Shown: positions 354-27,794, numbered from the stretch's first letter. The stretch is DNA of 64,000 bases from Candidatus Iainarchaeum sp. (GCA_017610205.1 JAFCCL010000001.1:81883-145882), one strand, 5' to 3'. Program-made: numbers and translations. The notes: generated from the letters alone by a model not told the origin.

Positions 354-387
354 TTCTATTAAATATTTTTTTAAAGAAAAAAATAAA

Positions 388-1542
388 TCATTTTTTTTTA
401 AAAACTATTTTTTCTTTGCTACTTTTTTTTTCTTTAAATCCTAGTTTTTTAAAAAGTTTTTTTGAAGCAGTATTTTTTGGTTTTATTTCTGCAATACACT
501 CCCTAATATTTATTCCTGATAATGCTATAAACGCAATGCCTTTTTTTCTAAAATTTTCATTGATTGCAATTGAAACTATTTTTTTGTCAATTCTTGCAAG
601 TCCAACTGGCGTTTTTCCTGAAAAAATTGCAAATGCCTTAAAATCATTATCTTTCAATTTTGTTTCCCAATATTTTGTGTTTTCTTTGACTTTTATTTTA
701 GCAGGGTTAAATGAGTTTTTTCTGACAGTTTTTTGGTTCATAATGTTCAAAATCCATTTTCTGTCATTAAAATTTACTGGTCTTAGTGTAATTTGCTCAA
801 TATTTCCTCTTTTGTCCCTGTATTTTTCTTCTTGAGTTATACTTATTTTTTTCAGTTTTGGATTGTTGTCAACAAACCCTATAACTTTTTCAACTTCTGC
901 GTTTGTTTCAAGCTTTGAAAAAATTGTTTCCATTAACTTAAGGTCTTTTTTTGTGTCAACACAAAACCTTAGCTCTGGTCTAAATAATTTTTTTCTTGCT
1001 TTTACATATCCCATTTTGAATTTTTTTGGGTTTGCATAAATATAATGAGTTACATGTTCTTTGTCAAACTTGCTTTTTGCTTCTTTAACTGTTTTTTCAA
1101 GTATTTTGAAAGAAAAGACTTCTACATCAAGGCCTCTTGGAAATGTTCTGAGTGCAATATTGCTTACATAATCAAATTTTTCTTTTAAAAATTTTTCAAC
1201 TGTCTGATCAACTGTTTTAGAATCAATTAGGGGACAATCTCCTGTTACTCTTATAACGACATCTAGCTCGTGTTTTTTTGCGCAATCATAATACCTTTTC
1301 AAAACATTATTTTCAGATCCTTTGTATACTTTAATTCCTTTTTTTTTGCAATAGTTTGAAATTTTATTGTCATTTCTTGCAGTGCTTGTAGCGACAATAA
1401 TTGTATCAAGTTTCTTGCATGCTGTAAGTCGTTCAATAATAATCCCAAGCATTGGTTTTCCTGCAATCTTTGTCATACTTTTTCCAGGGAGCCTTGTTGA
1501 TCCCATTCTTGCCTGTACTATACAGCCTATTTTTTTTCTCAT
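388..1542 (-). CDS. Sugar cytidylyltransferase (CMP-nonulosonic acid synthetase / SpsF-PseF-like) fused to a C-terminal GNAT-like N-acetyltransferase domain
   Basis: N-terminal CIVQARMGSTRLPGKSM is the hallmark of the acylneuraminate cytidylyltransferase / SpsF family. The C-terminal ~130 aa has a GNAT-like R-x-x-G-x-A pattern (RKKGIAFIAL). Confidence 0.7.
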   Translation of the reverse strand: MRKKIGCIVQARMGSTRLPGKSMTKIAGKPMLGIIIERLTACKKLDTIIVATSTARNDNKISNYCKKKGIKVYKGSENNVLKRYYDCAKKHELDVVIRVTGDCPLIDSKTVDQTVEKFLKEKFDYVSNIALRTFPRGLDVEVFSFKILEKTVKEAKSKFDKEHVTHYIYANPKKFKMGYVKARKKLFRPELRFCVDTKKDLKLMETIFSKLETNAEVEKVIGFVDNNPKLKKISITQEEKYRDKRGNIEQITLRPVNFNDRKWILNIMNQKTVRKNSFNPAKIKVKENTKYWETKLKDNDFKAFAIFSGKTPVGLARIDKKIVSIAINENFRKKGIAFIALSGINIRECIAEIKPKNTASKKLFKKLGFKEKKSSKEKIVFKKK

Positions 1543-1702
1543 GATTTTTCAAGCCTTAAACGTATTTTTTCTTAATTGGCTGATTTTTCTTAATTGCTTT
1601 TTTTGCCTTGTTGCCAATTTTGAATGAATTCATTTTTGCTTTCACTTACTTTCAGCTTTTTTTTTTTACTTTATTTTCATTTTCTCTCTTTTAAATATTT
1701 TT

Positions 1703-2908
1703 TCATTTCACTTCTTTTAAACCTTCTTTTACTTTTGCAATAACGTAATTTACATCATCTTCAACCATCTTTGGAAAAATTGGCAGGCTTAAAATTCTTT
1801 TAAAAACATATTCTGTGTTTGGAAAGTCCTTTGGATTCAAGTTATATTTTTTTTGGTAAAGACTGTGTCTGTAAATTGGAATATAGTGCACATTTACTCC
1901 AATGTTTTGCCCTCTTAGGAATTTGAATAGCTTGTCCCTGTTTTTTACAAGCACGCAATAAAGATGCCACGCATGTTTTATTCCCTGCATTGTTTTTGGG
2001 GTTTTAATTCCGTCAAGTCCCTCAAATGCTTTGTTATATGTTTTGGCAATTTCTTCACGTCTTTTCAAAAATGTTTCAATTCTTGAAAACTGGCTTAATG
2101 CAAGTGCGCATCCAATATCGCTTATTCTAAAATTTCTGCTAAGTTCTTTAACATCATATGCATAGTCGCCATTTTTTCCAAAACGTTTTTTTGCATCTCT
2201 ATCAATGCCGTGGTTTCTAAGCATTAAAATTTTTTTATAAATTTCTTCGTTGTTAACTGTTATTGCTCCGCCTTCACCTGAAGTAATATGTTTTACCGGG
2301 TGGAATGAAAAGCACCCTGCTTTGCCAAAAGAACCTGCTTTTTTGCCTTGAAATTTTGCTCCAAGTGCGTGTGCTGCATCCTCTATGATTGCCACGTTAT
2401 TGCTTTTTGCAATTTTTTCAATTTCGTTCATTTGACAGCATTGTCCTGCAAAATGAACCGGAATTATTGCCTTTGTTTTTTCCGTTATTTTTTTTTCAAT
2501 TTCACCAGGGTCTATGTTGAAGCTTTCTTTGTCGATATCTGCAAAGTCAACATCTGCCTGGTTTAGCAGGGCGGCGTTTGCAGATGCAACAAAACTAAGA
2601 GGGCTTGTTATTATCCTGGTTCCTTTTTCAACTCCACACGCTTTTGCAGAAAGTTCCAAAGCGGCGGTTCCGCTGTTTACTGCAACCGCATATTTTGTAC
2701 CAATATAATCTGCAAGTTTTTTTTCAAATTTGGCAATGGCTGGTCCGTTTGAAATCCAATCGCTTTTGAGAACTTGGTTTACTGCCAAAATGTCTTTATT
2801 ATTTATCCAATGCAAACCATATGGTAAATAGTTTTCTCTTTTTTTCATACAAATCTTAATCCTGTATTTTTGCTTATTGCAAATATTGTTTTTATTGTTT
2901 TGCTTCAA
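1703..2908 (-). CDS. DegT/DnrJ/EryC1/StrS-family PLP-dependent sugar aminotransferase
   Basis: About 400 aa with a typical DegT signature, including NSGTAALEL and a conserved Lys region. It overlaps the next gene by 17 nt, consistent with an operon. Confidence 0.85.
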   Translation of the reverse strand: MKQNNKNNICNKQKYRIKICMKKRENYLPYGLHWINNKDILAVNQVLKSDWISNGPAIAKFEKKLADYIGTKYAVAVNSGTAALELSAKACGVEKGTRIITSPLSFVASANAALLNQADVDFADIDKESFNIDPGEIEKKITEKTKAIIPVHFAGQCCQMNEIEKIAKSNNVAIIEDAAHALGAKFQGKKAGSFGKAGCFSFHPVKHITSGEGGAITVNNEEIYKKILMLRNHGIDRDAKKRFGKNGDYAYDVKELSRNFRISDIGCALALSQFSRIETFLKRREEIAKTYNKAFEGLDGIKTPKTMQGIKHAWHLYCVLVKNRDKLFKFLRGQNIGVNVHYIPIYRHSLYQKKYNLNPKDFPNTEYVFKRILSLPIFPKMVEDDVNYVIAKVKEGLKEVK

Positions 2909-3815
2909 ACATTCTTTTTAAACCTTCGTCTAAAGAAATTTTTGCTTCAAATCCCAATATCTTTTTTGCCAACTGGCCTGATGGAACCCTTTTAAAAATT
3001 TCTCTGGCGTTTGTTCTGTCACTATTTTCCATATTAACAAACTTCGGATTTAGTTTCTTTCCACTTAACTTAATAACTTTTTCTGCCAACAGTTTCATCG
3101 AAATTGGTTCTGAATTGTTGCATATGTTAAAAACTTTTTCATTAGCTTCCTTTTTTGTTAGTGCTAAAAGCACGCCATTGGAAGCGTCTTCTACATTACA
3201 AAAAGCCCTGATTTGTTCACCATTTCCAAAAACAACCGGGTTTTTATCGTTTAATACATTATCAACAAATATTGGAATCACAAATTTTTTAGCTTGATTT
3301 ATTCCGTATACATTAAAGAATCTAATAATTGAATAATTTAAATCATATCTTTGTTTATAAGCTTTTAGATATTCTTCACTTATTGCCTTAGTCAAACCAT
3401 AAACTGATTTTGGTTTCAGTTCATTTTTTTCTGTAATAGGAAAAACTGTTTGTTCGCCGTAAACTTCGCTTGATGAAGAAAAAACAATTTTTTTAACATT
3501 TTCTTTAACACATGCGTCTAAAACATTAATAGTTCCCTGAGTGTTTATAGTCAAACAGTCCAATCTGTTTAATTCAGTGTTTTTAACGCCAATCATTGCT
3601 GCTAAATGTACTACATAGTCACAGCCTTTAATTGCTTGTGATAGGCATGTTGAATCTAATATGCTTCCATAACAACATTTAATATTTTCTGAAAATTTCT
3701 TGTTTTTGAATTGATTAAAAAGGTCAAAAACGCATACTTCAAATCCTTCTTTAGCTAATCTTTCAGAAACATGGCTTCCAATAAAACCAGCTCCGCCTGT
3801 TACTAAAACTTTCAT
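2892..3815 (-). CDS. NAD-dependent nucleotide-sugar epimerase/dehydratase (extended SDR)
   Basis: N-terminal VLVTGGAGFIGSH Rossmann motif, a catalytic YxxxK region, and about 307 aa. Confidence 0.8.
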   Translation of the reverse strand: MKVLVTGGAGFIGSHVSERLAKEGFEVCVFDLFNQFKNKKFSENIKCCYGSILDSTCLSQAIKGCDYVVHLAAMIGVKNTELNRLDCLTINTQGTINVLDACVKENVKKIVFSSSSEVYGEQTVFPITEKNELKPKSVYGLTKAISEEYLKAYKQRYDLNYSIIRFFNVYGINQAKKFVIPIFVDNVLNDKNPVVFGNGEQIRAFCNVEDASNGVLLALTKKEANEKVFNICNNSEPISMKLLAEKVIKLSGKKLNPKFVNMENSDRTNAREIFKRVPSGQLAKKILGFEAKISLDEGLKRMFEAKQ

Positions 3816-3904
3816 ATTTTGTCACACACTCCTTTTTTTGCCTATTTTAATTTTTTTTATGCATTTTTAGGTAGTTATATTTCTAAATCGGATTTTTTTC
3901 TTAA

Positions 3905-4504
3905 TTATTTAAATTTTGCTTTGGTTTTTTCCGATATAATTTTTGTCAGCCCTTCTTTTATTATAATACCTGATAACACAATAGGTAACATTCCTGTTGT
4001 CAAAATTATTTTAGTGTAAAATAAACCTTTTCCTATTTTCTTTTTTAATTTTATTTTTGCCCTGTTAATTTTAGGGTGTTTGGTTTTGTGATAATATGAC
4101 CCTTCTTTCAAAATTGTTTGAAATTCTTTTTTTGTTTTGACCGGGGTATAACAATAATCCGGGACTTTTGTATAAAATTTTTTTTCTCCAACTGGAAAAT
4201 AAGCAATTGTGACAACTTTTAAAAGTAATCCTTCTAATACTACTGTTGAAATTCCTTTGTATGCAATTGTAACATTCAAATTTGCTTCAAGCATTTGCTT
4301 ATACAGTTTTGTTGTATTATCCAAGTAAACTCTCATGCCTTTTTTTTTGATATATGTTTTAATCTGTTTTTCGTTGCTACTTTTATGCAGCCTTACTGTT
4401 ATTTCTATATTTTTATCATTTAATTCTGAAATATCTTCGAGAGTTTTTGCAATTGGTTCAAAACCAGCGCAAGTTATGATTAAAACTTTGTACATTTTTT
4501 TCAC
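3905..4504 (-). CDS. hypothetical protein (Rossmann-like N-terminus; glycan-cluster associated)
   Basis: 199-aa ORF with good coding potential and a 4-nt overlap with the downstream PHP gene. I recognise no family. Confidence 0.3.
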   Translation of the reverse strand: MKKMYKVLIITCAGFEPIAKTLEDISELNDKNIEITVRLHKSSNEKQIKTYIKKKGMRVYLDNTTKLYKQMLEANLNVTIAYKGISTVVLEGLLLKVVTIAYFPVGEKKFYTKVPDYCYTPVKTKKEFQTILKEGSYYHKTKHPKINRAKIKLKKKIGKGLFYTKIILTTGMLPIVLSGIIIKEGLTKIISEKTKAKFK

Positions 4505-5400
4505 CTTTTATTTTCAAAACTTTTTAAGTTCAATGTTAACTGCGATGATTTTTTAATTTTTTTGAGAACCGAATCTGGAATTGTAACTGAATTAATTGTT
4601 TGCCTATCGCCCCCATGAAAATCGCTTCCTCCTGATTCAAGCAGGTTTTTTTCTTTTGCAATTTTCTGGAAAAATTTTATTATTTTCGTGTTTTCTTTTT
4701 TATCAATTTTTAATCTTGGGCAAATTATATAGTAAGGGTAATATGTTTCAATTCCTTGTCCTCCTTGTTTTTTAAAAAACTCGATTAATTTGATAGCCTT
4801 TTCTTTTGGAAAAATTCCAGGATGTGCAAGAAATGTTGTGCCACCAGCTTTTTTTATTATTGTTATTGCTTCTTTAATTCCTGACTTTGATTCCCTGTCA
4901 ACATAGGCTGGTTTGCCTGCTCCTAAATATTTTTCAAAAGCTTCTCTGATTGAGTGGATTTTGTTAGGGTATTTTTTCATAAGTAGCATGGCTATATGCG
5001 GTCTTCCCAATGTTCCTTTTACTCCTGATTTTAGTTCTTCAAAACTTATGTCGAAGCCAAGTTTTTGCAATTTTTTTACAATTTTTTTCTTTTGCTCAAG
5101 CCTGTCCTGTTTTGCCTTTTTGACAAATTTGTTTAGTTCATTGTTTTTGTAATCAACAAATAATCCAACAACTTCCGCTTCTTTGAATCCGTGTTTTTCT
5201 TCGTCGCAATTTATTTCTATTCCTGGAATAATCTCGATTCCTTTGCCTTTTGCATATTTGACAGCTGGTACAATGCCACTTATTGTATCGTGGTCTGTTA
5301 TAGCTATGGCATTAAGGCCTTTTTTTAATGACAGTTTAACCAATTCTTCTGGTGAAAGCCTTCCGTCTGAAGCTGTTGTGTGCATATGCAAATCTACCAT
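4501..5400 (-). CDS. PHP-domain metal-dependent phosphoesterase (TrpH/YciV-like); candidate 3',5'-bisphosphate nucleotidase (pAp phosphatase)
   Basis: N-terminal VDLHMHTTASDGRLSPEELV matches the PHP motif (DLHxHTxxSDG). The pAp-phosphatase role is inferred from the neighbouring APS kinase and sulfotransferase and from the known PHP-family Cv1693-type enzyme. Confidence 0.75.
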   Translation of the reverse strand: MVDLHMHTTASDGRLSPEELVKLSLKKGLNAIAITDHDTISGIVPAVKYAKGKGIEIIPGIEINCDEEKHGFKEAEVVGLFVDYKNNELNKFVKKAKQDRLEQKKKIVKKLQKLGFDISFEELKSGVKGTLGRPHIAMLLMKKYPNKIHSIREAFEKYLGAGKPAYVDRESKSGIKEAITIIKKAGGTTFLAHPGIFPKEKAIKLIEFFKKQGGQGIETYYPYYIICPRLKIDKKENTKIIKFFQKIAKEKNLLESGGSDFHGGDRQTINSVTIPDSVLKKIKKSSQLTLNLKSFENKR

Positions 5401-6023
5401 GTTTTTTCATCCTCTAGAATTTTAATCAATCTAACTGAAAGAATTTCAAGCCTTTTTTTTGGAATGTAAATTTTTTCAACAGGTTTCATTTTTACAAAAC
5501 TTTTTCCTGTTTTGTCATTGAATTCCTTTTTTTTCCCAAAAGAACTGTCAACAGTATAAGGCTGTCCTATATTTCCACTGAACGGGAAAATTTTTATGTG
5601 CAAATGCTCTTTTTTCTCTTTCCAGTTTGTGCATTTTCCATAAGTTGCTATTGAAATTGCAGAATACTTTGATTTAGCTGTTAGCTTGAATTTCTTGCTT
5701 TCTTCCGCCATTACTTTTGCCATTGCATGGTTTAGTTTTGCAAAGGCAATTCCATAGTTTTTTGCAAGTTTTGAATATTTTAAAAGTTGGGCAAAGTGTG
5801 TTAAATGTGAAAATGGCATGAGTTGTAGGCTGAAATCTTTTTCTAAACCCCCTGTTTTTGGAGACAATGTTGCAAACCACCCGTCTTCAGTTCCTGTTCC
5901 AATTCTGAATACAATTATAGATCCGTAATCAGTTTTTTTTCCTGTTTCAAGAGATGCTTCTTTGCACAAATTGCAACTTTTTTTTTGTTCAATGCTTTCT
6001 CCAACAAGTTTTTCTATTGCCAT
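5394..6023 (-). CDS. HIT/GalT-superfamily-like nucleotide hydrolase/transferase, atypical (HxHxK instead of HxHxH/Q)
   Basis: An N-terminal CNLC pair resembles the GalT zinc site. EHLHIKIFPF resembles the HIT histidine-triad position with the third His replaced by Lys. Confidence 0.35.
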   Translation of the reverse strand: MAIEKLVGESIEQKKSCNLCKEASLETGKKTDYGSIIVFRIGTGTEDGWFATLSPKTGGLEKDFSLQLMPFSHLTHFAQLLKYSKLAKNYGIAFAKLNHAMAKVMAEESKKFKLTAKSKYSAISIATYGKCTNWKEKKEHLHIKIFPFSGNIGQPYTVDSSFGKKKEFNDKTGKSFVKMKPVEKIYIPKKRLEILSVRLIKILEDEKTW

Positions 6024-6024
6024 A

Positions 6025-7107
6025 TTAAATTACCTTTATGAATTCTTTTTCCCGCTGGTCTGTTAAATATGAATCAAAATAGCCTGTTACAATACGGTGA
6101 TATGGATTTCCATTTTTTGGCTTAACTTTTTCAAGAATGCCGCATGCCCTTATTTTTTCTCCTGCATATGCCAGTTGGCTGTAGTCTCTTGAGTAAAACA
6201 CAACTTTTTCAACATTGCAGTCTTTGTCTGAATCAATTAACTTTGAATCTGTTAAGGTATAACATCCTGGTCTTACAACTGAACTGTGGTGGTCTTTTAC
6301 TGTCCCTTCAACTGTTGCCAGTCCGCATGAGGAATATTTTTCTTCTCCCCATTTAAACCAAACTTCTTCTTTTTTTTCTGCTGCAAAAATTACAAAAAGC
6401 AGGTTATCAAAATATCCTTCAGATTTTTTTCTTTCAAGCATATGTTTTAGAAATTTTTTTTCATCAAAAATGTTGAACCTGTTCCTTTTTTTGTAAAATT
6501 CAAGCCATTCTTTTTCGTTTTTCCATCTTAAGGATTTATGCCTGGTTTTTTCAAGATATTTCATAAGTTTCCAGAAGTTTTTTTTCCCGTATACAACGAC
6601 ATTTATGTCTGACATATTGTAAACATATTGTCCCATTAGTGTTGAGTAAGTTATTCCAAGGTCTTTAAGTCTGATTCCGCTTTCAAGCAGGAAATTTACA
6701 AATTTGTAGACTGTTGCAAGATGGTTGTCAAGTGCATTTTCAGGCATTGACATAAGTTCAGCAATTCCGGTTCTTGGAAAATAAATTCTTTCAATATCTT
6801 TGTTCTTTGCTAAAAAGAATAATCTTTCATTGTTGTGGAATTCGCTTTGGAAAATGTGGTTTGGATATGCCTTTTTGAATTTGTCAATATACTGAACAAG
6901 GCTGTTTTTTTCTGCCCACAGGTTTAGCCTGTTCATTTTTTGACCTGAGATAAAACGGTATTGCAGTGAATCACATTCTATTTTGTCTGTTGGAATGTAT
7001 TTTGGCTTTACTAAAATGCCCTGTTCAGGGTGCTGGTTTCCATAAACCTGACAATGAAGTCCGTCTTTTGTTGTTATCATTGATGACTCGTAGAAATGCA
7101 TTTTCAA
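6025..7107 (-). CDS. Pol-beta-superfamily nucleotidyltransferase-like protein, paralog A (motif SDIN, predicted catalytically altered)
   Basis: Clearly homologous over its full length to the adjacent ORF 7104..8204. It shares the N-terminal HFYES...KPKYIP block and the C-terminal VRPG.Y...ACG.LE.VKPK...YR.V.GYFD.YL..REKEFIK block. The central ITYSTLMGQYVYNMSDINVVVYG matches the hG[GS]-x(9-13)-[DE]h[DE]h nucleotidyltransferase motif with the second carboxylate replaced by Asn. Confidence 0.5.
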   Translation of the reverse strand: MKMHFYESSMITTKDGLHCQVYGNQHPEQGILVKPKYIPTDKIECDSLQYRFISGQKMNRLNLWAEKNSLVQYIDKFKKAYPNHIFQSEFHNNERLFFLAKNKDIERIYFPRTGIAELMSMPENALDNHLATVYKFVNFLLESGIRLKDLGITYSTLMGQYVYNMSDINVVVYGKKNFWKLMKYLEKTRHKSLRWKNEKEWLEFYKKRNRFNIFDEKKFLKHMLERKKSEGYFDNLLFVIFAAEKKEEVWFKWGEEKYSSCGLATVEGTVKDHHSSVVRPGCYTLTDSKLIDSDKDCNVEKVVFYSRDYSQLAYAGEKIRACGILEKVKPKNGNPYHRIVTGYFDSYLTDQREKEFIKVI

Positions 7108-8204
7108 ATCTCCGCTTTTATGAATTCTTTTTCCCTTCTCTCACTTAGGTAAGCATCAAAATATCCTATGACTACTCTGTAATATTTTTCCTCATGCTTT
7201 GGTTTGACAAGTTCAAGTAAACCGCAGGCTGTAATTGTTTCTCCTTTCAAAGCCTGTTGTACAAAAGGAATTGAATATGTTACAATTCTTTTTATTGGAA
7301 TTGCATTGTCAATTTTGGGTGTTTTGTGGTTGCCTTCTATTAACTTTGTTTTTTCCACTTCATAAAAGCCAGGTCTTACATGGCTGTTATAATGGTCGCT
7401 TACAATTGCTTTTATTGTTGCAAGTCCTTTTGGCTCATATTCTGCTTCTTCCCATTTGAACCATGTTTCTTCCTGTTCTTCAACAGTGAAAAGAGTAAAA
7501 ACTGTTTCTCCAAATAATCCTTCATATTTTTTTCTTTTCATATGTTTTACATATTCTTTCTCTGTAAAGTGTGAAGATTCAGATGTCTTATGTTCTTTGT
7601 AATATTCTGTCCATTCCTTGTCAGTTTTCCATTTGAGCTTTTCATGCTTTGCTTTTTTCAAAAAATCAAGTATTTTCCACCCATTTTCCTTTCCATAAAT
7701 TATCATGTCAATGTCAGACTTTCCAAAGGTGTAATTTCCAAGCAATGTTGAATGCGTTATTCCCATACTTTCAGATTTTACTCCGCTTTTTTCAAGCAGT
7801 TTAACTAATTCAATTACTAGTTTTAAATATCGGTCCAAATTCTTTTCTGGAACCTGAAGCAATTCCTGCAATCCCTTTCTTCCGTCATGTACTGTTTTTA
7901 TTTTGCTTTTTGGAACTACATAAAACCAGTTTTTGTGCAAAGGGCAATCATAGATATATTCCGGAAACTTTTTTTTGAATTCGTTTACGTATCCTTCAAG
8001 TTTGTTTTTTGGTGCAAACTGGTTAAATCTTACAAGGCATTTTTCAAACAAAAACCGGTATTTTAATCCTTTTCCAGAAATTGAATCTTTTGGAATATAT
8101 TTTGGCTTTACTATTACAAACCCTTCAGGATGTTCGTTTGCATAGGATTTGCATTGAAAGCCGTCAACAGTGTCTATTAGGGTTGATTCATAAAAATGTG
8201 GCAT
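7104..8204 (-). CDS. Pol-beta-superfamily nucleotidyltransferase-like protein, paralog B (intact GKSDIDMIIYG motif)
   Basis: The central ITHSTLLGNYTFGKSDIDMIIYG fits the minimal nucleotidyltransferase fold motif. The ~140-aa N-terminal and ~150-aa beta-rich C-terminal domains are not assignable from memory. It overlaps paralog A by 4 nt. Confidence 0.5.
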   Translation of the reverse strand: MPHFYESTLIDTVDGFQCKSYANEHPEGFVIVKPKYIPKDSISGKGLKYRFLFEKCLVRFNQFAPKNKLEGYVNEFKKKFPEYIYDCPLHKNWFYVVPKSKIKTVHDGRKGLQELLQVPEKNLDRYLKLVIELVKLLEKSGVKSESMGITHSTLLGNYTFGKSDIDMIIYGKENGWKILDFLKKAKHEKLKWKTDKEWTEYYKEHKTSESSHFTEKEYVKHMKRKKYEGLFGETVFTLFTVEEQEETWFKWEEAEYEPKGLATIKAIVSDHYNSHVRPGFYEVEKTKLIEGNHKTPKIDNAIPIKRIVTYSIPFVQQALKGETITACGLLELVKPKHEEKYYRVVIGYFDAYLSERREKEFIKAEI

Positions 8205-8340
8205 TGATTCACCTTAATCCTGATTAAAAAAATGTGGTTCGCAATTGTTTTAAAACACTGTTTTTTTATCTTTGTACTACTTGAAAAATGTTGTTCTATT
8301 AAAAGGATTATGACTATAAAAATTGTAAAGTAGTGATCTA

Positions 8341-8877
8341 ATGAACGTAAAATCTGGTACAATCTGGTTTTCGGGTTTACATGGTTCTGGAAAAACAACT
8401 ATTGCAAAAGCCATTTCTGAAAAACTTAGATTTAATGGCATAAAAGTTGTTGTATTGGATGGTGATGAATTGAGAAAAGGTCTTTCGGCAGACCTTAACT
8501 ATTCTTTGGAAGAACGCAACAAGCACTTAAAAAGGGTTGCAAACATCTGCAAGATTATTTCAGAAAATGATGTTTTGAATATTGCCTGTGTTGCTTCCCC
8601 AACTGAAAAAAGTAGAACTTATGCAAAAGGAATCATTTCTAATTTTTTTGAAGTTTATATTAAATGTCCTCTACAAGTGTGTGAACAAAGAGATGTCAAA
8701 GGACATTATAAACGTGCAAGGGCTGGAGAAGCTGGTTTTGAAAACTTTTTGGGAATAAATCTTACATTTGAAGAGCCAAAATCAGCAGATTTTGTTCTTG
8801 AAACCGACAAAGAGCCTGTTAATAATTCAGTTGAAAAGCTCTTCAATAAGATTTTGGAAAAAAACTGGCTCAAGTAA
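8341..8877 (+). CDS. cysC: Adenylylsulfate (APS) kinase
   Basis: WFSGLHGSGKTTIA P-loop and overall similarity to CysC; about 178 aa. It is divergently transcribed from the nucleotidyltransferase pair. Confidence 0.85.
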   Translation: MNVKSGTIWFSGLHGSGKTTIAKAISEKLRFNGIKVVVLDGDELRKGLSADLNYSLEERNKHLKRVANICKIISENDVLNIACVASPTEKSRTYAKGIISNFFEVYIKCPLQVCEQRDVKGHYKRARAGEAGFENFLGINLTFEEPKSADFVLETDKEPVNNSVEKLFNKILEKNWLK

Positions 8878-8892
8878 TAATATTTATCTTTT

Positions 8893-9858
8893 TCAATTTT
8901 TTTCCCATTTTTCTTCATATTGTTTTCCAAGTTCTAAAATAGCAGAATAGCATTCTTTGCTTGAATTTTTCTTTATAACATCTATTTTTTCTTTCCGTTC
9001 TGTTTTTGGATGTGGAATAAAACGTTCTTTTGCCATTAATAATTTCATTTCCGGTGTTATTTTTCTTTTCAAAAAATTTGAAATCTTTTCAAGTTCTGGT
9101 TCTGGTTTTGTTGACAATAATTCATATGTAAGAAAATGTATTCTTTTGCTATAGTTGTCAGGCAGTTTTTTTAAAGATTTTATACTCATTTTGTTCAAAG
9201 TTTGCATTGATGTGATTATTCGGTCCATTTCTGACATTTTTGCATATTTATCAGTCCATTGGTATGCAAACCATGGTACTGGTCCATTTTTTCCTTTTAT
9301 TGGAATGCTAAATACTTTTGGGTCTTTGCCCCATCTTTTTCCATAACCTCTTTTAAACCAAGAGTATGTTAGATCAACAGGGTTTCTTTTGATTTTAATT
9401 ACTTTTAATTTTGGGTAAATATCAAAAAAGAGTTTTATATTTGACATGGCTTCATGCAAAACAAACGGAAAAATTTTTTCGCTTTTTTTTATTTTTTGCA
9501 CTGCTGAATCACCGTCTTCTTCAAATAATCGTTTCATATAACTATCTGCCTTTGGAGAATTAGTGATGCTGCTTTTGTCAGAAAAACGAAAATTAAGATT
9601 TCGGCCAATTACCCTGTTATAAACAAAGTTATCAATTTGGCTTCCGATAATGGCTTTTGCAGTTTCTTTTTCAATAAATCCAAGCATATTTAGTTGTGAA
9701 ATTTGTTCAGGTATACTAAAATACAGGAATTTTTCGACATTTTCAAATCCTTCGATTAGGTTTGCTAAAAACATTTTTCCTGCTCTGGTGTGCCCGTCAA
9801 GAAAAATAATATTTTCAACAAGTTTTGCTCTTTCACTTAAATGAATTTCTTTTGACAT
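8893..9858 (-). CDS. PAPS-dependent sulfotransferase (glycan/lipid sulfotransferase family)
   Basis: A 5'-PSB-like FLDGHTRAGKMF motif and a strong 3'-PB motif, KRNPVDLTYSWF (RxPxDxxxS). It is convergent with and adjacent to cysC. Confidence 0.55.
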   Translation of the reverse strand: MSKEIHLSERAKLVENIIFLDGHTRAGKMFLANLIEGFENVEKFLYFSIPEQISQLNMLGFIEKETAKAIIGSQIDNFVYNRVIGRNLNFRFSDKSSITNSPKADSYMKRLFEEDGDSAVQKIKKSEKIFPFVLHEAMSNIKLFFDIYPKLKVIKIKRNPVDLTYSWFKRGYGKRWGKDPKVFSIPIKGKNGPVPWFAYQWTDKYAKMSEMDRIITSMQTLNKMSIKSLKKLPDNYSKRIHFLTYELLSTKPEPELEKISNFLKRKITPEMKLLMAKERFIPHPKTERKEKIDVIKKNSSKECYSAILELGKQYEEKWEKN

Positions 9859-9994
9859 TTATACAAACTCCTTTTTTGATAAGAAAATGTTTTTTAGTTA
9901 TCTTATTTTTAAAATTTAATTAACTAATAAATACTTTTTACTGCAAACATATATATATATTGATTTTTGGTGCATTTTCAATTTATAAATTTCT

Positions 9995-11779
9995 CTATTT
10001 TAACAATCTGATAATTCTTTCAGTTGCTTTTCCATCCTGTTTAAATCCAAATTCATATAAAAATTTGGCTACTTTTTTTTCATGGGCTTTTTTGTTATCT
10101 TTTTCTTTCAAAAACTTTTGAATTGATTTCTTAAAGTTGTCTTTTTTTCCGGTAATTCTTTTAATTCCTTCAAAAAGAGTCTGGTCTTTAGTTTTTCTAT
10201 AGATTGCTGTTGGCTTTTTTAAAGCCATTGCTTCAAGACCAATAATTGGTGAAATGGCTATTACTGCATCTGCACAGTTAATAAGCCGATGTAAATCTGT
10301 TTTATTTAAAAGAATTGCCTTTCCTTTGCTGTTTGTTATTATTTTAGCATAATCTTTTTTGTTTTCAAATGCGTGGATTTTAATAACAAGTTTTGTATTT
10401 TTGATTTCTTTTACTGCTTCCATTGCTGCAGAAGCAATTTCAATTGGCAAAACTTTGTTTTTTTCAACTGGTTGGGTTACAAGTACCACCAACTTTTCTT
10501 TTTTGGAAACACCAATGCTTTTTCTAAAAGAATACCCGTTGGTTTTCTTGTTATACAAAACATCAAAGCGCGGAGACCCTGTAATAGAAATTTTTTTGCC
10601 AGGGACCATTTTTTTTTCCAAATTTTTTTTGTAATGAGGTCCCCAAACAGCAATTTTGTCTGCTACAACTGGTGCAAACCCCCTTATGAAATCAGGTTGG
10701 TTTGTGTTTGCGCTGAAAAGTCCGTGTTGTACAACCACGCTTTTTGCATTAATTTTTTTTGCAAGAAGTACACAAATTCTTTCAAATGGAATCCAATCTT
10801 CCCAAACAACAACTGCACACGGCTTTTTTTCCTTAAACTCTTTCAAAAGCATTTCAATAAGGAAAACAAATTCTGGCCAGTCCCTTTCACTAAAGCGTGG
10901 CATGAATTTGAAAAAAACATCTGCGAAGTTAATGTCATTAAAAACCATTTTTTTTCTAAATTTTGATTTTTCAGAAAGTTCTTTGAAAAGTCCTTTGAAA
11001 AAAATTCTTTTTTCTTTTTTTGTTTTTACAAATCTTTTTGCATTCCATGGCATTAAAATTTTTCTTACAACAAAGTTGTCAAGTGAACTAACTGAAAAAC
11101 TATTGTTTTTTTCAACTTCTTTTGAAAAGCGGTCTAGATAGCCATTACTTTTTACAAAAACAATATCTGCTCCGTTTTTTATGATTATTTTTTCTTTCAA
11201 AATTGAAAAAACTTTTTTTTGAAAATCTGCAATTTTTTTCTTGTTAAAATTTAATTTTCTTTTTTTTTCTAATGGTTGTTCTATTTCAATTTCTTTAAAT
11301 CTTGCAGATGTTGCTTTTGCAACTGCCTTTGCGCAGTCACTTGAAAAACTGTCTTTAATGCCAATAAAAGTTTTGGTTTTTTCACACTTTGCGGCATTAA
11401 TGCCTGAGTTTATTGCAAGGAAAGTTTGTCTAAAAAGGTTGTAAATTGCAAAATCTGAAACAAAACCAAGTGAAATTTCTTTCATTGTGCTTGCCTGTTC
11501 GATTTTTTTGTCAAATTTGTACCAATTTCTTGAAAAAAACAATGCCTTTTTATTAATAAAATAAAGTTCTCTATCTGAAACAAGGTCTGTTTCTTCAAAA
11601 ACTTTAATGTTTTTTGCAAAAATTCTTTGCCCTGGCCAAAATTCAAGACAAATGCATTTTATTATTACATTTGGTTTTTTTGCAGCAAATTTGAGAACTC
11701 CATCAAATTCTTTTCTGTTTGAAGCAAACGCAATAATGTTTTCCATTTTTTTTCTGTTTGAAGAAGTGATTTTTTCCAT
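9995..11779 (-). CDS. GT-B-fold polysaccharide biosynthesis protein (CDP-glycerol glycerophosphotransferase TagF / KpsC-like)
   Basis: 594 aa. The C-terminal half has a VVQHGLF...WGPHY...ITGSPRFD...KIHAFEN pattern reminiscent of the TagF/Glyphos_transf and capsule-biosynthesis families. Confidence 0.4.
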   Translation of the reverse strand: MEKITSSNRKKMENIIAFASNRKEFDGVLKFAAKKPNVIIKCICLEFWPGQRIFAKNIKVFEETDLVSDRELYFINKKALFFSRNWYKFDKKIEQASTMKEISLGFVSDFAIYNLFRQTFLAINSGINAAKCEKTKTFIGIKDSFSSDCAKAVAKATSARFKEIEIEQPLEKKRKLNFNKKKIADFQKKVFSILKEKIIIKNGADIVFVKSNGYLDRFSKEVEKNNSFSVSSLDNFVVRKILMPWNAKRFVKTKKEKRIFFKGLFKELSEKSKFRKKMVFNDINFADVFFKFMPRFSERDWPEFVFLIEMLLKEFKEKKPCAVVVWEDWIPFERICVLLAKKINAKSVVVQHGLFSANTNQPDFIRGFAPVVADKIAVWGPHYKKNLEKKMVPGKKISITGSPRFDVLYNKKTNGYSFRKSIGVSKKEKLVVLVTQPVEKNKVLPIEIASAAMEAVKEIKNTKLVIKIHAFENKKDYAKIITNSKGKAILLNKTDLHRLINCADAVIAISPIIGLEAMALKKPTAIYRKTKDQTLFEGIKRITGKKDNFKKSIQKFLKEKDNKKAHEKKVAKFLYEFGFKQDGKATERIIRLLK

Positions 11780-12877
11780 TCAATCACCTAAAATTGAGGC
11801 ATATGCTGCAGCAGTTTGCTTTGCAGCCGCCTTCCAAAGGAATTTTTTTTCAATGTGCTTTCGCAATCCTGACTTGCTTCCGCTTACAAGAATTTTTTCA
11901 ATTTTTTCCCTGATGTCACTAATTCTTCCTGGATTAACGTAAAGGGCGTAGTTTTCAAAATATTCTTTGGTACAGCCTTCCTGTGTAATTATAATGTCTG
12001 CTCCTGCAAGTCCTGCTTCAAGAGCTGCAAGGCCAGGTGTTTCATACCAGCTTGGCAGTGCAAAAACCCTGCATGCAGCGTAGGCAGATGAAAGCAACTC
12101 ATCGTTATGTAGCATGGGTTTTAGAAATACAACATCTTTTCCTGCCACTTCAAGACATTTTTTGTAATATTCACTGCTGTTTGATGTAGGTCCTCCAATA
12201 ATTACAAGTTTTTCGTTTACTCCTTTCATTGCTTTAATCAGTGAAAGCACATTTTTTCTTTCCTCTATTCTTCCTACATACAGTACAAAATTCTTTAATC
12301 CAAATCTTTTTTCAAAAACTTCTGGTTTTGCTTTTGCAAACCTTGCATCAACACCGTTTCTTACAATGTGAATTTTTCTTTCATCTGCGTGAAAAATTTT
12401 TTTCAAAACATTTGCTTCTGCTTTGCTATTTGGTAGCAGAACATCTGCTGTTCTTACAATTTGTTTTGCTTTTGAAATTCCAATTCGTTTTGCAAGCTCT
12501 GCTGCAACAGCTTTTCCCTTTCCTTTCACTCCCTTGTTCCACAATATTGCGCTTTTAAGCGAAGGCCAGTAAATTGTACTTACTGCAATTGGAATTCCTG
12601 CTTTTTCTGCCTGCATTACAAATGGGTAATTGTCTCTGTGAATGTTAAAATTGTGAAACAAATCAAATTCGGAAAAATCAACGGCGTAATCTTGTTCTTC
12701 AAGAATTTTTACTTCAAAGCCAAGATTTTCCAGCTCTTTTTTTGTTTCAAGTAATTGTATTTCTCCTCCGCCAGGGCTTTTGAAAGAGCCTGGTGAAGTG
12801 TTGAACAAAATTTTCTTTGCAGCTTTTGAATTTTTCTTCATTGCTTTTGAATCTTTCGTCCTTTTAGAATCTTTCAT
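11780..12877 (-). CDS. Glycosyltransferase family 4 (GT-B, RfaB-like) with lysine-rich N-terminal extension
   Basis: GT4 C-terminal EX7E-type region and 365 aa. The N-terminus is MKDSKRTKDSKAMKKNSKAAKK. Confidence 0.7.
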   Translation of the reverse strand: MKDSKRTKDSKAMKKNSKAAKKILFNTSPGSFKSPGGGEIQLLETKKELENLGFEVKILEEQDYAVDFSEFDLFHNFNIHRDNYPFVMQAEKAGIPIAVSTIYWPSLKSAILWNKGVKGKGKAVAAELAKRIGISKAKQIVRTADVLLPNSKAEANVLKKIFHADERKIHIVRNGVDARFAKAKPEVFEKRFGLKNFVLYVGRIEERKNVLSLIKAMKGVNEKLVIIGGPTSNSSEYYKKCLEVAGKDVVFLKPMLHNDELLSSAYAACRVFALPSWYETPGLAALEAGLAGADIIITQEGCTKEYFENYALYVNPGRISDIREKIEKILVSGSKSGLRKHIEKKFLWKAAAKQTAAAYASILGD

Positions 12878-14943
12878 TACGTTCGCCCCATTGCCTTTTT
12901 TGCCTTGTGCTTTAGTCCTCTTTTCAATGAATCAATTCTTTTGTCTTTTTCTGATTTAAATATTCTAATTTCAAGCCCTGATTTTAGCACTGCTCCAAAC
13001 TTGGCTTTGTATGCAGGGCTTCCTCCAAGCAAATCAAATTCCTTAATGCCCCTGCTGCAGCAATATTCTATTGCCTTAATGAACAAAACATTTCCAATGC
13101 TCTGTTTTGGATTGTAATTTTTTCCAAATCCTATATTGAGTACACTAAATTTCTTTCCTTGTTCTATTGCCAAAAGAATTCCTGCAAGCTTGTTGTCAAG
13201 TTTTAGGTTTAGGAAACGCAATTTTCCCTCTGCTGCTGCATTAAAGCAGGATTGTTTGTAGATTGCCCGAAACTCTTCCTCTTCCAACACCGTTTTTTCG
13301 CCTTTTCTTTCCATATTTTCAAAATGCAGTCTTAGGAAATCCTTCCATTGCTTTTCAAATTCTTTTGCGTTTGAAACAATCTCCACTTTAATTTTAAATT
13401 CTCTTCCAAGCCTGTTTAAATCGTTTCTTTGATTTTTTCGCAGTTTTTTCTTAAGTCCTGCCCAATATTTTTCCATTGTATTAGGAAGTTCTACTACTGC
13501 GCAGGCATCGCCTTGTTCTAATGCAATTTCAATTCCTTCTTTTTTGCATTTTTCCTGCAGTGCTTTCATAAACAAGGGCTTGTCAACCAAATGTCTGAAG
13601 AAAATACTTTTCCAATCAGGGTTTGCAAAAACAAATTCAATAATTTTTTCAGCAACCTTTTTTTCTTTTCCTTTTTCTGACAAAAAGTCAAGGTGGTATG
13701 AAAAGTCCTGTGCCAACAGCCCAAGTTTTTTGTTTTCAACTGAAAAGAATGCAAGTCCCAATGGTTTTCCCTTGCTTCCTGCAATTGCAACCAATGCATT
13801 GCCTTTCTTTTCCTCTGCCATTATCCAGGGCATTAGCCAGGAGGGTGATAGGAAAAAATTGTCTGACTTTTTGGCAAGCGAATTCCATTCCCTTTCAATG
13901 TCTTTAACTTTTCCGCCTGCTTCAAAACTTTCAGCGCAGCCTGCCTTTGTTCCTGTCGCTTTTGTACTTTTTGCTTTTGCACTGCCTGCCATTGCAGCAT
14001 AGCCTTTGCTTTGGTAAAGCTTTCTTTTTGAAACAATGTCTTTTGTGTCCTTTAAATTAAGCCAGTAGGCTTCAATCAGCCATGGAAAGCGCATGCTGAA
14101 AGCATTTTTTCCAAGCCTTAGGCTTTCCCAAAATGCCGCCTTTGCAAGCCTTCTTTTTGGAAAATGCAAAAGCATATACCTTATTCTGTTTCTGTTCAAT
14201 GCCAAAAACTTCCATTTGCTTGGTTGTGCATTTGTTGCAGCTGATTCATAGTGAATTATTTTGCTTTTTGGAGTAAACATTATTTTAAATCCGGCTTTTC
14301 TTGCCCTTGCACAGTAGTCCGAATCCTCAAAATATATTGGAAAAAAGCCTTTGTCAAGTACTCCAATTGCATCAATTACTCTCCTTTTGACAAAAAATGC
14401 CCCTCCTGAAACCATTTCTGCTTCCCCTTCCTCTTTTTTGAAGCTGTCTCTTGAAATTCCCTTATTATCAACAAAGCCTGGTCCAAAAATCGTGTTTTTG
14501 TGCGCGGCGTTTGGAAACCATGGTCCAAGAATGCCAACATCCTGCCTTTTATCTGCAAGTTCAACCAATGGCTTAAGCCAGTTCTTTGTAACCTTTGTGT
14601 CATTGTTTAGCAGAAGAATAAATTCTCCTTCAGAAACTTTTATTCCTGCATTGTTGCCTCCGCCAAAGCCAAGGTTTTTGCCACTAAGCACGAGCTTTTG
14701 CACCTTTCCATTTTTTTTCATTTTTTTGAGCAGTTCAATGCTTCCGTCAGTGCTTCCATTGTCTGAAACAACAATTTCAAATTTTTTGTATGAGGTGTTT
14801 TTCAGAATTGAATCAATGCAGTCTTTTAGAAAGTGCTTTCCATTCCAATTTAGAATAATAATCGAAACAAGTCCCTCTTTCACTGGCTTCATTTTTGAAA
14901 CAATCCCTTTTTTCTCAGGCTTCATAGGCTCCATTTGCTTCAT
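12877..14943 (-). CDS. Bifunctional fusion: N-terminal GT2 glycosyltransferase + C-terminal FemAB/CelD (BioF2-like, Acetyltransf_6) acyl/aminoacyl-transferase-like domain
   Basis: The N-terminus (SIIILNWNGKHFLKDCIDSIL...VVSDNGSTDGS) is a GT2 signature with a DxD. The C-terminal ~350 aa (EWNSLAKKSDNFFLSPSWLMPW ... LGGSPAYKAKFG) resembles CelD/FemAB-like GNAT-related domains. Confidence 0.55.
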   Translation of the reverse strand: MKQMEPMKPEKKGIVSKMKPVKEGLVSIIILNWNGKHFLKDCIDSILKNTSYKKFEIVVSDNGSTDGSIELLKKMKKNGKVQKLVLSGKNLGFGGGNNAGIKVSEGEFILLLNNDTKVTKNWLKPLVELADKRQDVGILGPWFPNAAHKNTIFGPGFVDNKGISRDSFKKEEGEAEMVSGGAFFVKRRVIDAIGVLDKGFFPIYFEDSDYCARARKAGFKIMFTPKSKIIHYESAATNAQPSKWKFLALNRNRIRYMLLHFPKRRLAKAAFWESLRLGKNAFSMRFPWLIEAYWLNLKDTKDIVSKRKLYQSKGYAAMAGSAKAKSTKATGTKAGCAESFEAGGKVKDIEREWNSLAKKSDNFFLSPSWLMPWIMAEEKKGNALVAIAGSKGKPLGLAFFSVENKKLGLLAQDFSYHLDFLSEKGKEKKVAEKIIEFVFANPDWKSIFFRHLVDKPLFMKALQEKCKKEGIEIALEQGDACAVVELPNTMEKYWAGLKKKLRKNQRNDLNRLGREFKIKVEIVSNAKEFEKQWKDFLRLHFENMERKGEKTVLEEEEFRAIYKQSCFNAAAEGKLRFLNLKLDNKLAGILLAIEQGKKFSVLNIGFGKNYNPKQSIGNVLFIKAIEYCCSRGIKEFDLLGGSPAYKAKFGAVLKSGLEIRIFKSEKDKRIDSLKRGLKHKAKKAMGRT

Positions 14944-26123: not shown

Positions 26124-26157
26124 CTCATATACTTATTAACTCAGGATTTGTTTGAAT

Positions 26158-27758: not shown

Positions 27759-27794
27759 ATGCTATTGAATCACTTTTTTTTGGGTTTGACTAAT

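Follow-up and report, generated by a model that had tools for sequence, protein, structure and literature searches.

We tentatively propose that the region described here is one copy of a DPANN-wide module for PAPS supply and recycling, placed in an N-glycosylation island, in which three co-operonic genes (the NTa-NTb-HIT trio) replace ATP sulfurylase. It is very likely that the region is a glycan-sulfation module, as the original prediction held, since both its gene families and its location in an AglB island support this reading. That the trio is the source of APS is a more doubtful suggestion. If correct, a conserved, uncharacterised trio in place of the usual first enzyme would possibly represent a new way of activating sulfate. 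The window, by which we mean the whole stretch of DNA analysed, comprises 64 kb of a 236-kb contig.

An APS kinase and a sulfotransferase lie in an AglB N-glycosylation island

The product of cysC (8341-8877, plus strand) scored 176.3 bits against TIGR00455, above the curated equivalog cutoff of 138.7 bits for this model, and 157 bits against PF01583. Its translation carries a Walker-A P-loop (GLHGSGKTT) and an LDGD motif (VLDGDELR), a combination diagnostic for APS kinase, and judged by these features cysC encodes a bona fide APS kinase. The neighboring gene (8893-9858, minus strand) encodes a 321-aa putative PAPS-dependent sulfotransferase of the Sulfotransfer_1 family, which matched PF00685 over residues 81-292 with 40.6 bits (Pfam gathering threshold, 22 bits); the proposal that this protein is a sulfotransferase thus held. 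Among 13 homologs, the 5'-PSB-like residues Gly22, Arg25, Gly27, and Lys28 are at least 90% conserved, and His135, Arg158, and Pro160 are invariant, so that both the 3'-PB motif and the catalytic histidine are present. These homologs are found either in Sat-CysC-sulfotransferase arrays or adjoining the nucleotidyltransferase (NT) module (L006, L043-L045). From the island context, we infer that the acceptor is a glycan.

The coordinates and motifs originally given for the CysC, sulfotransferase, and PHP ORFs were all verified, but the description of cysC as divergently adjacent to the sulfotransferase gene was mistaken: the two genes converge, and 15 bp (8878-8892) separate their 3' ends. It is from the NTa-NTb-HIT-PHP operon that cysC diverges, across an AT-rich spacer of 136 bp (8205-8340) that, from its sequence and the orientation of the flanking genes, is presumed to be a bidirectional promoter region for cysC and the NTa operon. 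The same head-to-head layout occurs at six other loci (L011, L018, L019, L033, L049, and L074), where cysC and NTa are separated by 55-171 bp. The operon is tightly coupled and runs in the order NTa-NTb-HIT-PHP-p199. Its last gene, p199 (3905-4504, minus strand), encodes a 199-aa protein and overlaps the PHP gene by 4 bp; a Pfam scan gave no match for it, NCBIfam gave a weak match to the surface-carbohydrate model TIGR04396 (19.8 bits), and p199 homologs are absent from related loci, which places it outside the conserved core elsewhere.

The three sulfation genes lie inside an archaeal AglB N-glycosylation island. Its context marker is an AglB/STT3 oligosaccharyltransferase (44472-46634, minus strand; PF02516, 56.8 bits; PF22627 AglB_core-like), which Pfam annotation of the window places next to GT4 AglH-like, Alg14, and Alg13 genes, in an island that also holds Glycos_transf_4 and several GT2/GT4 genes and more than 10 glycosyltransferases in all. 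The locus therefore combines AglB/STT3, a priming GT, and glycosyltransferases, as expected for archaeal AglB-dependent N-glycosylation. A type I phosphodiesterase (PDE) of the alkaline-phosphatase superfamily (16891-18336, minus strand; PF01663, 128.6 bits) is encoded 7 kb from the module and is homologous to PDEs that in other genomes lie beside the module or form part of its fusion proteins. CDP-alcohol phosphatidyltransferase and Glyphos_transf-like genes were also observed near the module.

The PHP-family phosphoesterase is probably a pAp phosphatase

The fourth gene of the operon (4501-5400, minus strand) encodes a PHP-family phosphoesterase of the TrpH/YciV/Cv1693 type (PF02811, 64 bits). 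It scored 168.3 bits against NF041577 (3',5'-nucleoside bisphosphate phosphatase), a family-level match under the equivalog cutoff of 400 bits, and 162.8 bits against NF047791 (RNase RNM/RNase AM), under the cutoff of 375 bits. The protein is thus equidistant from the RNase AM and pAp-phosphatase models and not assignable as RNase AM by sequence. The best match in a PDB sequence search was 7ug9 (102 bits), and 2yb1 (92 bits), 9etk, and 3e0f were also found. Like Escherichia coli RNase AM (7ug9) and the Cv1693 3',5'-adenosine bisphosphate phosphatase (2yb1), which it resembles over its full length, the window protein keeps the metal motifs; unlike them, it is archaeal, its gene lies in an operon or a fusion with sulfation genes, and it scores below both equivalog cutoffs.

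Genomic context favors hydrolysis of pAp (3'-phosphoadenosine-5'-phosphate), in agreement with the suggestion that the PHP protein recycles the PAP left by sulfotransfer. A PHP domain is fused to APS kinase at two loci (L014 and L020), and elsewhere the PHP slot holds either a CysQ-type Inositol_P domain joined to APS kinase (L018 and L060) or an HD protein of SpoT/Mesh1-like type that matches RelA/SpoT/Mesh1-type 3'-pyrophosphohydrolases only. Because of these fusions and replacements, and because they occur around a recurring module core, the PHP protein is probably a pAp phosphatase. Neighborhood logic of the same kind earlier revealed archaeal pAp phosphatases (PMC10322725).

The module core recurs across DPANN archaea

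In a comparison across genomes, the core formed by the phosphatase and NT genes was recovered from 67 species loci of DPANN archaea, consistently inside glycan islands, with CysC adjacent when present. Gene counts refer to the 48 of these 67 loci with enough downstream flank. NTb was found in 46/48 and HIT in 44/48, and a nucleotide 3'-phosphatase was encoded in 47/48 (PHP in 35, HD in 9, and a CysQ-like protein in 4). The trio's constant partner is the 3'-phosphatase and not CysC, which was found within 10 kb in 18/48; the most frequent flanking gene was PDE (26/48). Loci that have CysC carry it either within the operon or right beside it in divergent orientation; 20 of 23 loci place it within 200 bp of the core, and the median gap is 10 bp. 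A recognisable sulfotransferase was detected in only 6/48 loci with the two query types used, and at least nine loci, the window included, have a sulfotransferase next to the module; some other genomes encode a Sulfotransfer_2 enzyme instead of the Sulfotransfer_1 type.

Gene fusions join several of these components. Phosphatase and APS kinase are fused in four loci (PHP-CysC in two and CysQ(Inositol_P)-CysC in two), NTb and HIT in six loci plus L037 and L076, PDE and NTa in four, and PDE, HD, and NTa in three, and single loci carry an HD-NTa fusion (L052) and an NTb-HIT-HAD fusion (L053). In L048, L051, and L058, the gene immediately preceding NTa encodes a pyruvate-kinase-like protein. The association goes far beyond chance: dozens of genomes at species level share the same gene set, fusions included.

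ATP sulfurylase and the trio are mutually exclusive in the sampled loci

As originally noted, the window encodes no ATP sulfurylase. Pfam annotation of its ~57 long ORFs returned no ATP-sulfurylase, PAPS_reduct (CysD), or EF-Tu-type CysN domain, and an unfiltered six-frame hmmsearch of the 64 kb with the PUA_2+ATP-sulfurylase profile found nothing. Canonical Sat was likewise found in 0/48 loci, with the NT loci lacking it even by unfiltered six-frame search; the exclusion of CysD and CysN covers the window and three of the 67 loci, by Pfam. Five further arrays (L001-L003, L078, and L079) encode CysC and an ST1-type sulfotransferase together with a PK-PUA-Sat fusion, in which a pyruvate-kinase-like protein is joined to Sat, and these lack the trio. 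Over ~1 Mb of sampled sequence, Sat and the trio were thus mutually exclusive beside CysC and ST1-type sulfotransferases. No module protein, in the window or in the NT loci, showed homology to ATP sulfurylase (PF01747) or, within the coverage just given, to CysDN; if the trio does activate sulfate, it would be an analogue of these enzymes rather than a homologue.

A nucleotidyltransferase pair and a divergent HIT protein lie where the activating enzyme would be expected

NTa (7104-8204, minus strand), the first gene of the operon, encodes a Pol-beta-fold nucleotidyltransferase (NTase) whose C-terminal part is an OB-fold and whose GS...DxD...E motif is complete; it has both the core fold and the G[SG]...[DE]x[DE]...[DE] metal ligands of the superfamily. 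Its nearest structural matches are RNA/DNA-acting NTases (TENT/PolX-like) and nucleic-acid-binding OB-folds, all at low Z. NTb (6025-7107, minus strand) is a paralog with 44% identity to NTa by BLASTP and a degenerate D-x-N motif: the second metal-ligand position is Asn in 55/55 NTb proteins versus Asp in 63/63 NTa proteins, and NTb is presumed to be a non-catalytic or regulatory partner. The NTa family is distantly homologous over its full length to Methanocaldococcus jannaschii MJ1086, with which it shares the NTase core of PF01909-like Pol-beta enzymes, and members of this wider family are found in archaea outside any module context. Compared with the MJ1086 family at large, the DPANN clade has undergone a duplication that gave one active and one degenerate copy, has no solved full-length analogue, and is the sole part of the family linked to sulfation genes.

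The HIT gene (5394-6023, minus strand) encodes a divergent HIT-superfamily protein with CxxC and HxHxK motifs, which matched no HIT family among sequence profiles. It nonetheless has the HIT alpha/beta fold, with GalT and ADP-glucose phosphorylase among its structural neighbors. Its invariant motif, His140-Leu-His142-Ile-Lys144, keeps the first two histidines but has Lys in third place, where His or Gln would be expected; we therefore count it among divergent HIT-fold proteins, outside the Hint, Fhit, and GalT families. The HxHxK motif sets it apart from the HxHxH or HxHxQ of Mycobacterium tuberculosis Ap4A phosphorylase (3ano), GalT, and ADP-glucose phosphorylase, and from the HIT families in a comparison that extended to APS:phosphate adenylyltransferase and to Fhit acting on APS. 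It also differs from known HIT enzymes in having ~60 extra C-terminal residues and, in several genomes, a fusion to the NTase paralog. HIT enzymes are known to handle APS via an adenylyl-histidine, and an adenylylsulfate:phosphate adenylyltransferase belongs to the GalT branch (PMC4613722; bioRxiv 10.64898/2026.09.13.751320). The module protein is a candidate adenylyl-histidine transferase.

In the pathway that we propose, the trio would stand in for ATP sulfurylase. NTa, paired with the degenerate NTb, would consume ATP and release pyrophosphate, the HxHxK HIT protein could bear AMP on its central histidine, and AMP would pass to sulfate, directly from NTa or through the HIT adenylyl-histidine, to give APS. 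This uphill reaction might be pulled or fuelled by PDE, HAD phosphatases, and, in other genomes, pyruvate-kinase-like partners. CysC would then phosphorylate APS to PAPS, the Sulfotransfer_1 enzyme would move sulfate onto a glycan or lipid-linked oligosaccharide, and the PHP protein would split pAp, a toxic by-product, into AMP and phosphate. These last three steps are supported by homology and context. For the first, the retention of the full Pol-beta catalytic triad in NTa provides supporting chemistry, but routing AMP through an NTase and a HIT protein would offer no obvious thermodynamic gain over ATP sulfurylase. A Pol-beta NTase pair and an HxHxK HIT protein as a non-homologous ATP sulfurylase substitute is credible but unproven. 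Accordingly, the early suggestion that the HIT protein or the NTase pair supplies APS was strengthened by synteny, fusions, and exclusivity with Sat, although it is still a matter of inference.

Alternative explanations for the trio

The sulfation genes could work as proposed with APS made by a canonical Sat or CysDN from another part of the genome, leaving the trio to act on nucleotides or RNA, for instance in the turnover of nanoRNA or 3'-phosphorylated nucleotides, in RNA 3'-end tailing or repair, or in dinucleoside-polyphosphate or alarmone-like metabolism, whence the link to a 3'-phosphatase. The OB-fold and TENT/PolX-like matches of NTa, its pan-archaeal homologs outside a sulfation context, the presence of RNase AM among the PHP relatives, the hydrolysis of alarmones by SpoT-like HD enzymes, and a constant partner that is the 3'-phosphatase rather than CysC are all consistent with such a role. 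We nevertheless consider it unlikely: the CysQ-type Inositol_P proteins that replace PHP belong to a small-molecule phosphatase family and are fused to APS kinase, CysC is operonic or immediately divergent in a module always located in glycan islands, and Sat and the trio never occurred together beside CysC in the sequence sampled. PADLOC defence-system profiles likewise gave no match for NTa, NTb, HIT, p199, HD, or PDE, and the 18 bits obtained for PHP are noise. A less probable idea is that the trio makes some other adenylylated, possibly 3'-phosphorylated donor, with sulfation just one use of the module; PDE might, for example, move an ADP- or phospho-linked group to the glycan, with the freed 3'-phospho-nucleotide recycled by PHP, HD, or CysQ. 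The frequency of PDE beside the module, its fusions to NTa, the GalT and ADP-glucose phosphorylase neighbors of HIT, and the nearby CDP-alcohol phosphatidyltransferase and Glyphos_transf-like genes fit this idea, whereas a CysC above the APS-kinase equivalog cutoff and the sulfotransferases beside the module argue against it, and we know of no donor of this kind.

DPANN archaea are typically symbionts with reduced metabolism, and this lineage, indicated by the labels of the homologs, together with a window devoid of sat, might suggest that the host supplies APS or PAPS precursors and that the trio serves nucleotide salvage and has no part in sulfate activation. This is very unlikely, since it leaves the fusions among trio, phosphatase, and CysC unexplained, APS is labile, and no APS uptake system is known. 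Least probable by far is that cysC serves assimilatory sulfate reduction and that the sulfotransferase-like protein is not a sulfotransferase. Nothing in its favor was found, and profile and context effectively refute it: neither a PAPS/APS reductase nor a sulfite reductase nor sat is encoded in the window, the sulfotransferase-like protein matches the sulfotransferase profile and carries its motifs, and cysC sits in a non-assimilatory setting, here an AglB/Alg13/Alg14/GT-rich island.

Comparison with known sulfation pathways

The canonical PAPS pathway for sulfated glycans runs from Sat or CysDN through CysC to a sulfotransferase plus CysQ, as in rhizobial NodPQ/NodH and mycobacterial CysDNC/Stf0, and it is also seen in the PK-PUA-Sat, CysC, and ST1 arrays described above. 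Like this pathway, the module clusters an APS kinase, a PAPS-type sulfotransferase, and a pAp-removing phosphatase in a glycan locus. Unlike it, the module has no ATP sulfurylase but an NTase pair and a HIT protein in the position of the activating enzyme, and its pAp phosphatase slot is filled by PHP, SpoT-like HD, or CysQ proteins. The sulfate assimilation pathway of Methanothermococcus thermolithotrophicus, which comprises ATPS, APSK, PAPS reductase, and a DHH-family PAP phosphatase, resembles the module in being archaeal, in drawing PAPS from an APS kinase, and in having a non-canonical PAP phosphatase that was recognised through its APSK neighborhood (PMC10322725). In contrast with that assimilatory pathway, with its canonical ATP sulfurylase and DHH phosphatase, the module lacks Sat, is directed to glycan sulfation, and relies on PHP, HD, or CysQ phosphatases.

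The sulfation genes and their glycan context

ORF listing and profile scans upheld the three sulfation genes of the original prediction, namely cysC, encoding APS kinase (8341-8877, + strand; 176.3 bits for TIGR00455 against a cutoff of 138.7, and 157 bits for PF01583), a gene for a 321-aa sulfotransferase (8893-9858, - strand), and a gene for a TrpH/YciV-type PHP phosphoesterase with NCBIfam profile matches (4501-5400, - strand). The 321-aa protein scored 40.6 bits against the Sulfotransfer_1 profile (cutoff 22), which confirms its family membership. Its family is small (13 matches), and in an alignment of 13 homologs the 5'-PSB-like DGxTRxGK motif is kept, His135 is invariant, and the 3'-PB motif RxP[VI]D...S is conserved. 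The cysC and sulfotransferase genes had been described as divergent but are actually convergent, with 15 bp between them. What cysC does diverge from, across a 136-bp AT-rich spacer, is a five-gene operon of overlapping or abutting reading frames that encodes two Pol-beta-type nucleotidyltransferase proteins, NTa (7104-8204) and NTb (6025-7107), a divergent HIT-like protein (5394-6023), PHP, and a 199-aa protein, p199 (3905-4504). PHP matched the NCBIfam models for 3',5'-nucleoside bisphosphate phosphatase (168 bits) and RNase RNM (163 bits) almost equally, with both scores far under the respective equivalog cutoffs, and its closest solved structures are E. coli RNase AM (7ug9), 9etk, 2yb1 (the Cv1693 pAp phosphatase), and 3e0f. 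Positions 1-12000, which include the sulfation module, have a lower G+C content (0.29-0.33) than the remainder of the window (0.34-0.41), as would fit an island with a history of its own.

The remainder of the window, which was scanned with Pfam, carries archaeal chromosome markers (TBP, L10e, RpoF, DUF655, an archaeal ThrRS editing domain, and 5S rRNA) and an N-glycosylation island of ~45 kb. This island contains the oligosaccharyltransferase AglB/STT3, an AglH-like GT4, Alg13/Alg14, more than 10 glycosyltransferases, sugar-nucleotide enzymes, several B12-radical-SAM enzymes, and an alkaline-phosphatase-type phosphodiesterase (PDE, 16891-18336). The four B12-binding radical-SAM enzymes (21403-22872, 26152-27672, 27759-29312, and 34072-35484) and a further radical-SAM enzyme (32981-34075) suggest unusual radical chemistry, C-methylation or otherwise, on the glycan sugars. 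Between the glycan genes lies a 314-aa protein (23606-24550, - strand) with weak LAGLIDADG_3 and HTH_50 matches, possibly a regulator derived from a homing endonuclease or the remnant of a mobile element. A 688-aa protein (12877-14943, - strand) fuses a GT2 glycosyltransferase to an Acetyltransf_6 (FemAB-like GNAT) domain, which is an unusual combination for a glycan locus in archaea. The 5S rRNA gene (48832-48949, - strand, 68.7 bits) stands alone, with no neighbouring 16S or 23S rRNA, and the 64-kb window holds no tRNA genes.

The same Pfam scan bore out the predicted absence of ATP sulfurylase (Sat) from the window, and a six-frame hmmsearch of the window with filters off gave zero matches to the PUA_2+ATP-sulfurylase profile. 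Pfam likewise detected neither CysD (PAPS_reduct) nor CysN, the components of the alternative sulfate-activating enzyme, in the window and in three loci. An assimilatory role for cysC was rejected because the window contains neither reductases nor sat. Among homologous loci in other genomes (L001-L079), five relatives of the sulfotransferase (L001-L003, L078, and L079) lie in glycan clusters, collinear with an APS kinase and a PK-PUA_2-ATP-sulfurylase fusion; therefore, a canonical solution exists for this sulfotransferase family, and the window lacks canonical Sat at exactly the place expected from these relatives. The fusion (700-756 aa; L001:7185-9455, L078:7185-9455, and L079:791-2893) is encoded directly upstream of APS kinase in these three clusters, and a separate PK-like protein is encoded upstream of NTa in L048, L051, and L058. 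PK domains seem to accompany sulfate activation repeatedly. A third arrangement may be represented by the most distant sulfotransferase context (L004:10981-13909), where genes for an orphan of 634 aa and a PK/HpcH-like protein of 337 aa come after the sulfotransferase gene and neither Sat, nor CysC, nor the NTa-NTb-HIT trio occurs within 10 kb. Woesearchaeota and Pacearchaeota sulfotransferases were called uncharacterised in a recent review (PMC11625862).

The NTa-NTb-HIT trio is conserved across DPANN archaea

Homologs of NTa (282) and the HIT-like protein (306; both as clusters at 90% identity) come almost wholly from DPANN archaea, and none of them carries a Pfam annotation. Three distant NTa homologs share the gene order of the window; in their surroundings, PHP and APS kinase are joined in one 469-aa protein in L005, an APS kinase lies nearby in L006, and a Sulfotransfer_2 gene adjoins in L008. 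Scanning one genome per species yielded 67 NTa loci, which were annotated by phmmer and HMM searches (~1.0 Mb overall), and components were counted in the 48 loci whose sequence extends 5.5 kb or more beyond NTa on its downstream side. NTb was present in 46/48 loci, HIT in 44/48, and PDE in 26/48, while a pyruvate-kinase-like protein occurred in four and Sat in none of the 48. A nucleotide 3'-phosphatase of some type was found in 47/48 loci (PHP in 35, HD-type in 9, and CysQ-like in 4). Since CysC lies within 10 kb in just 18/48 loci (~38%), the obligatory partner of the trio is the phosphatase. Where CysC is present, it sits less than 200 bp from the core in 20 of 23 loci, the window included, and the median gap is 10 bp.

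In L044, L053, L064, L066, and L070, the module is joined by a second HIT-family paralog, which is divergent (53-141 bits against the family profile) and frequently lies on the opposite strand. The DPANN-type module also appears in MAGs titled "uncultured Methanosarcinales" (L016-L018, L020, L031, L034, L036, L048-L051, and L062) and in one record each titled "Patescibacteria group bacterium" and "Bathyarchaeota" (L067 and L068), all of which are probably mislabelled or misbinned.

Three phosphatase families alternate in one slot

Pfam analysis of representative proteins defined the domain composition of the fusions. PHP is fused to APS kinase in L014 and L020, whereas an Inositol_P (CysQ-type) domain is fused to APS kinase in L018 and L060, both of which lack PHP. 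In six loci (L008, L025, L029, L059, L064, and L067), PHP is replaced by a ~248-aa HD protein whose sole PDB matches are RelA/SpoT/Mesh1/(p)ppApp-hydrolase HD domains (E 0.002-0.04). Thus, three unrelated families, whose known members strip 3'-(pyro)phosphates from nucleotides, alternate in one slot, and two of them are fused to APS kinase. With pAp being a toxic by-product of sulfotransfer (PMC10322725), this alternation and these fusions are the strongest available evidence that PHP, as we consider likely, hydrolyzes pAp rather than being an RNase AM ortholog. An RNA-repair or RNase AM role of PHP was down-weighted because a small-molecule phosphatase of the CysQ type, joined to APS kinase, can take the same slot.

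The trio participates in fusions as well: NTb-HIT proteins occur in at least six loci, PDE-NTa proteins in four, an HD-NTa protein in L052, and PDE-HD-NTa proteins in L062, L066, and L070. A HAD-like phosphatase (DLNGT...GDTFGD) is fused to NTb-HIT in one locus (L053:11061-13499) and encoded separately between HIT and PHP in two others (L047:12712-13533 and L056:12788-13603). Taken together, the NTb-HIT, NTa-HD, PHP-CysC, and CysQ-CysC fusions and the shared HD/PHP/CysQ slot tie the trio to PAPS metabolism.

A possible source of APS

NTa and NTb are paralogs (44% identical), and the predicted structure of NTa is a Pol-beta NTase core with a C-terminal OB-fold (pLDDT 94, pTM 0.91). Structural matches of this model in the PDB were domain-level and low-Z only, with none significant by Foldseek, and single-sequence and profile searches of the PDB with the sulfotransferase, HIT, NT, and PDE proteins returned nothing useful. 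The S-D-x-D...E motif is kept in 63/63 NTa sequences, with E242 in 62/63, while D-x-N occurs in 55/55 NTb sequences; this pattern suggests a catalytic/degenerate heterodimer. Within a pan-archaeal family of 888 representatives (at 50% identity), the pair makes up the DPANN branch; the family is uncharacterised throughout and includes proteins of Thermoproteota, Korarchaeota, Asgard archaea, and Methanocaldococcus jannaschii (MJ1086, Q58486). The MJ1086 gene (L077:6001-7023) overlaps an upstream gene for a 506-aa orphan and precedes a GHMP kinase; no parts of the module surround it in this one wider-family neighbourhood examined, and our literature search found no paper on the NTa/NTb/MJ1086 family. 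HIT enzymes form a covalent NMP intermediate on the second His, and their GalT branch includes Ap4A phosphorylases and adenylylsulfate:phosphate adenylyltransferase (bioRxiv 10.64898/2026.09.13.751320); APS is also a substrate of Fhit (PMC4613722).

Homology and context make it very likely that the region is a sulfation module, in which CysC would convert APS to PAPS, the sulfotransferase would sulfate an AglB-pathway glycan, and PHP, probably a pAp phosphatase, would convert pAp to AMP and phosphate. We tentatively propose that NTa/NTb and HIT could supply the APS. Both chemistries transfer an adenylyl group from the alpha-phosphate of a nucleotide. Pyrophosphate would be released by NTa, and HIT could pass AMP from His142 on to sulfate with Lys144 of its HxHxK motif as candidate anion ligand. 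PDE or HAD phosphatases and the PK-like partner could pull or fuel APS formation; in the alternative arrays, canonical Sat likewise carries a fused PK domain. A thermodynamic advantage of this route is not evident, and HIT alone running ADP-sulfurylase in reverse was not preferred, being thermodynamically implausible by our own estimate.

It is also conceivable, if rather unlikely, that canonical Sat is encoded elsewhere in the genome and that the trio performs nucleotide or RNA chemistry. The OB-fold and TENT-like similarities fit such a substrate, as does the rarity of nearby CysC relative to the 3'-phosphatase (18 vs 47 of 48 loci), while the fusions and shared slot point to PAPS. Less probable still is that the trio makes another adenylylated donor, used by PDE, and scavenging of APS/PAPS precursors from the host appears quite improbable. 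An anti-phage defence system was rejected because there were no PADLOC matches and the module occurs almost universally, with conserved synteny, in glycan islands.

Relation to known sulfation systems

The data define, independently of the claim for the trio, a DPANN-wide sulfation cassette that predicts sulfated N-glycans or surface glycans in many Woesearchaeota, Nanoarchaeia, and Iainarchaeia, and they bring in PHP-type and SpoT-like HD-type enzymes as candidate additions to the convergent pAp phosphatases. The cassette is a concrete entry to the surface chemistry of largely uncultured symbiotic archaea, whose sulfotransferases are described as uncharacterised (PMC11625862). Our literature search found no description of such a cassette, of PHP- or HD-type pAp phosphatase candidates, of PHP-CysC or CysQ-CysC fusions, or of a candidate non-homologous sulfate-activating trio.

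Read as a sulfation module, the region is a system of a known type. To our knowledge, only two enzymatic solutions exist for sulfate activation, Sat and CysDN. We suggest, with still more reserve than for the APS source as such, that NTa/NTb and the HxHxK HIT protein might be a third, non-homologous sulfate-adenylylating system, providing APS for DPANN glycan sulfation within a self-contained PAPS cassette with interchangeable PHP/HD/CysQ phosphatases. If true, the NTase pair with HIT would represent a new class of enzyme for a reaction of central importance, and a large family of orphans (282 and 306 clusters), together with the pan-archaeal superfamily that includes MJ1086, would gain a function.
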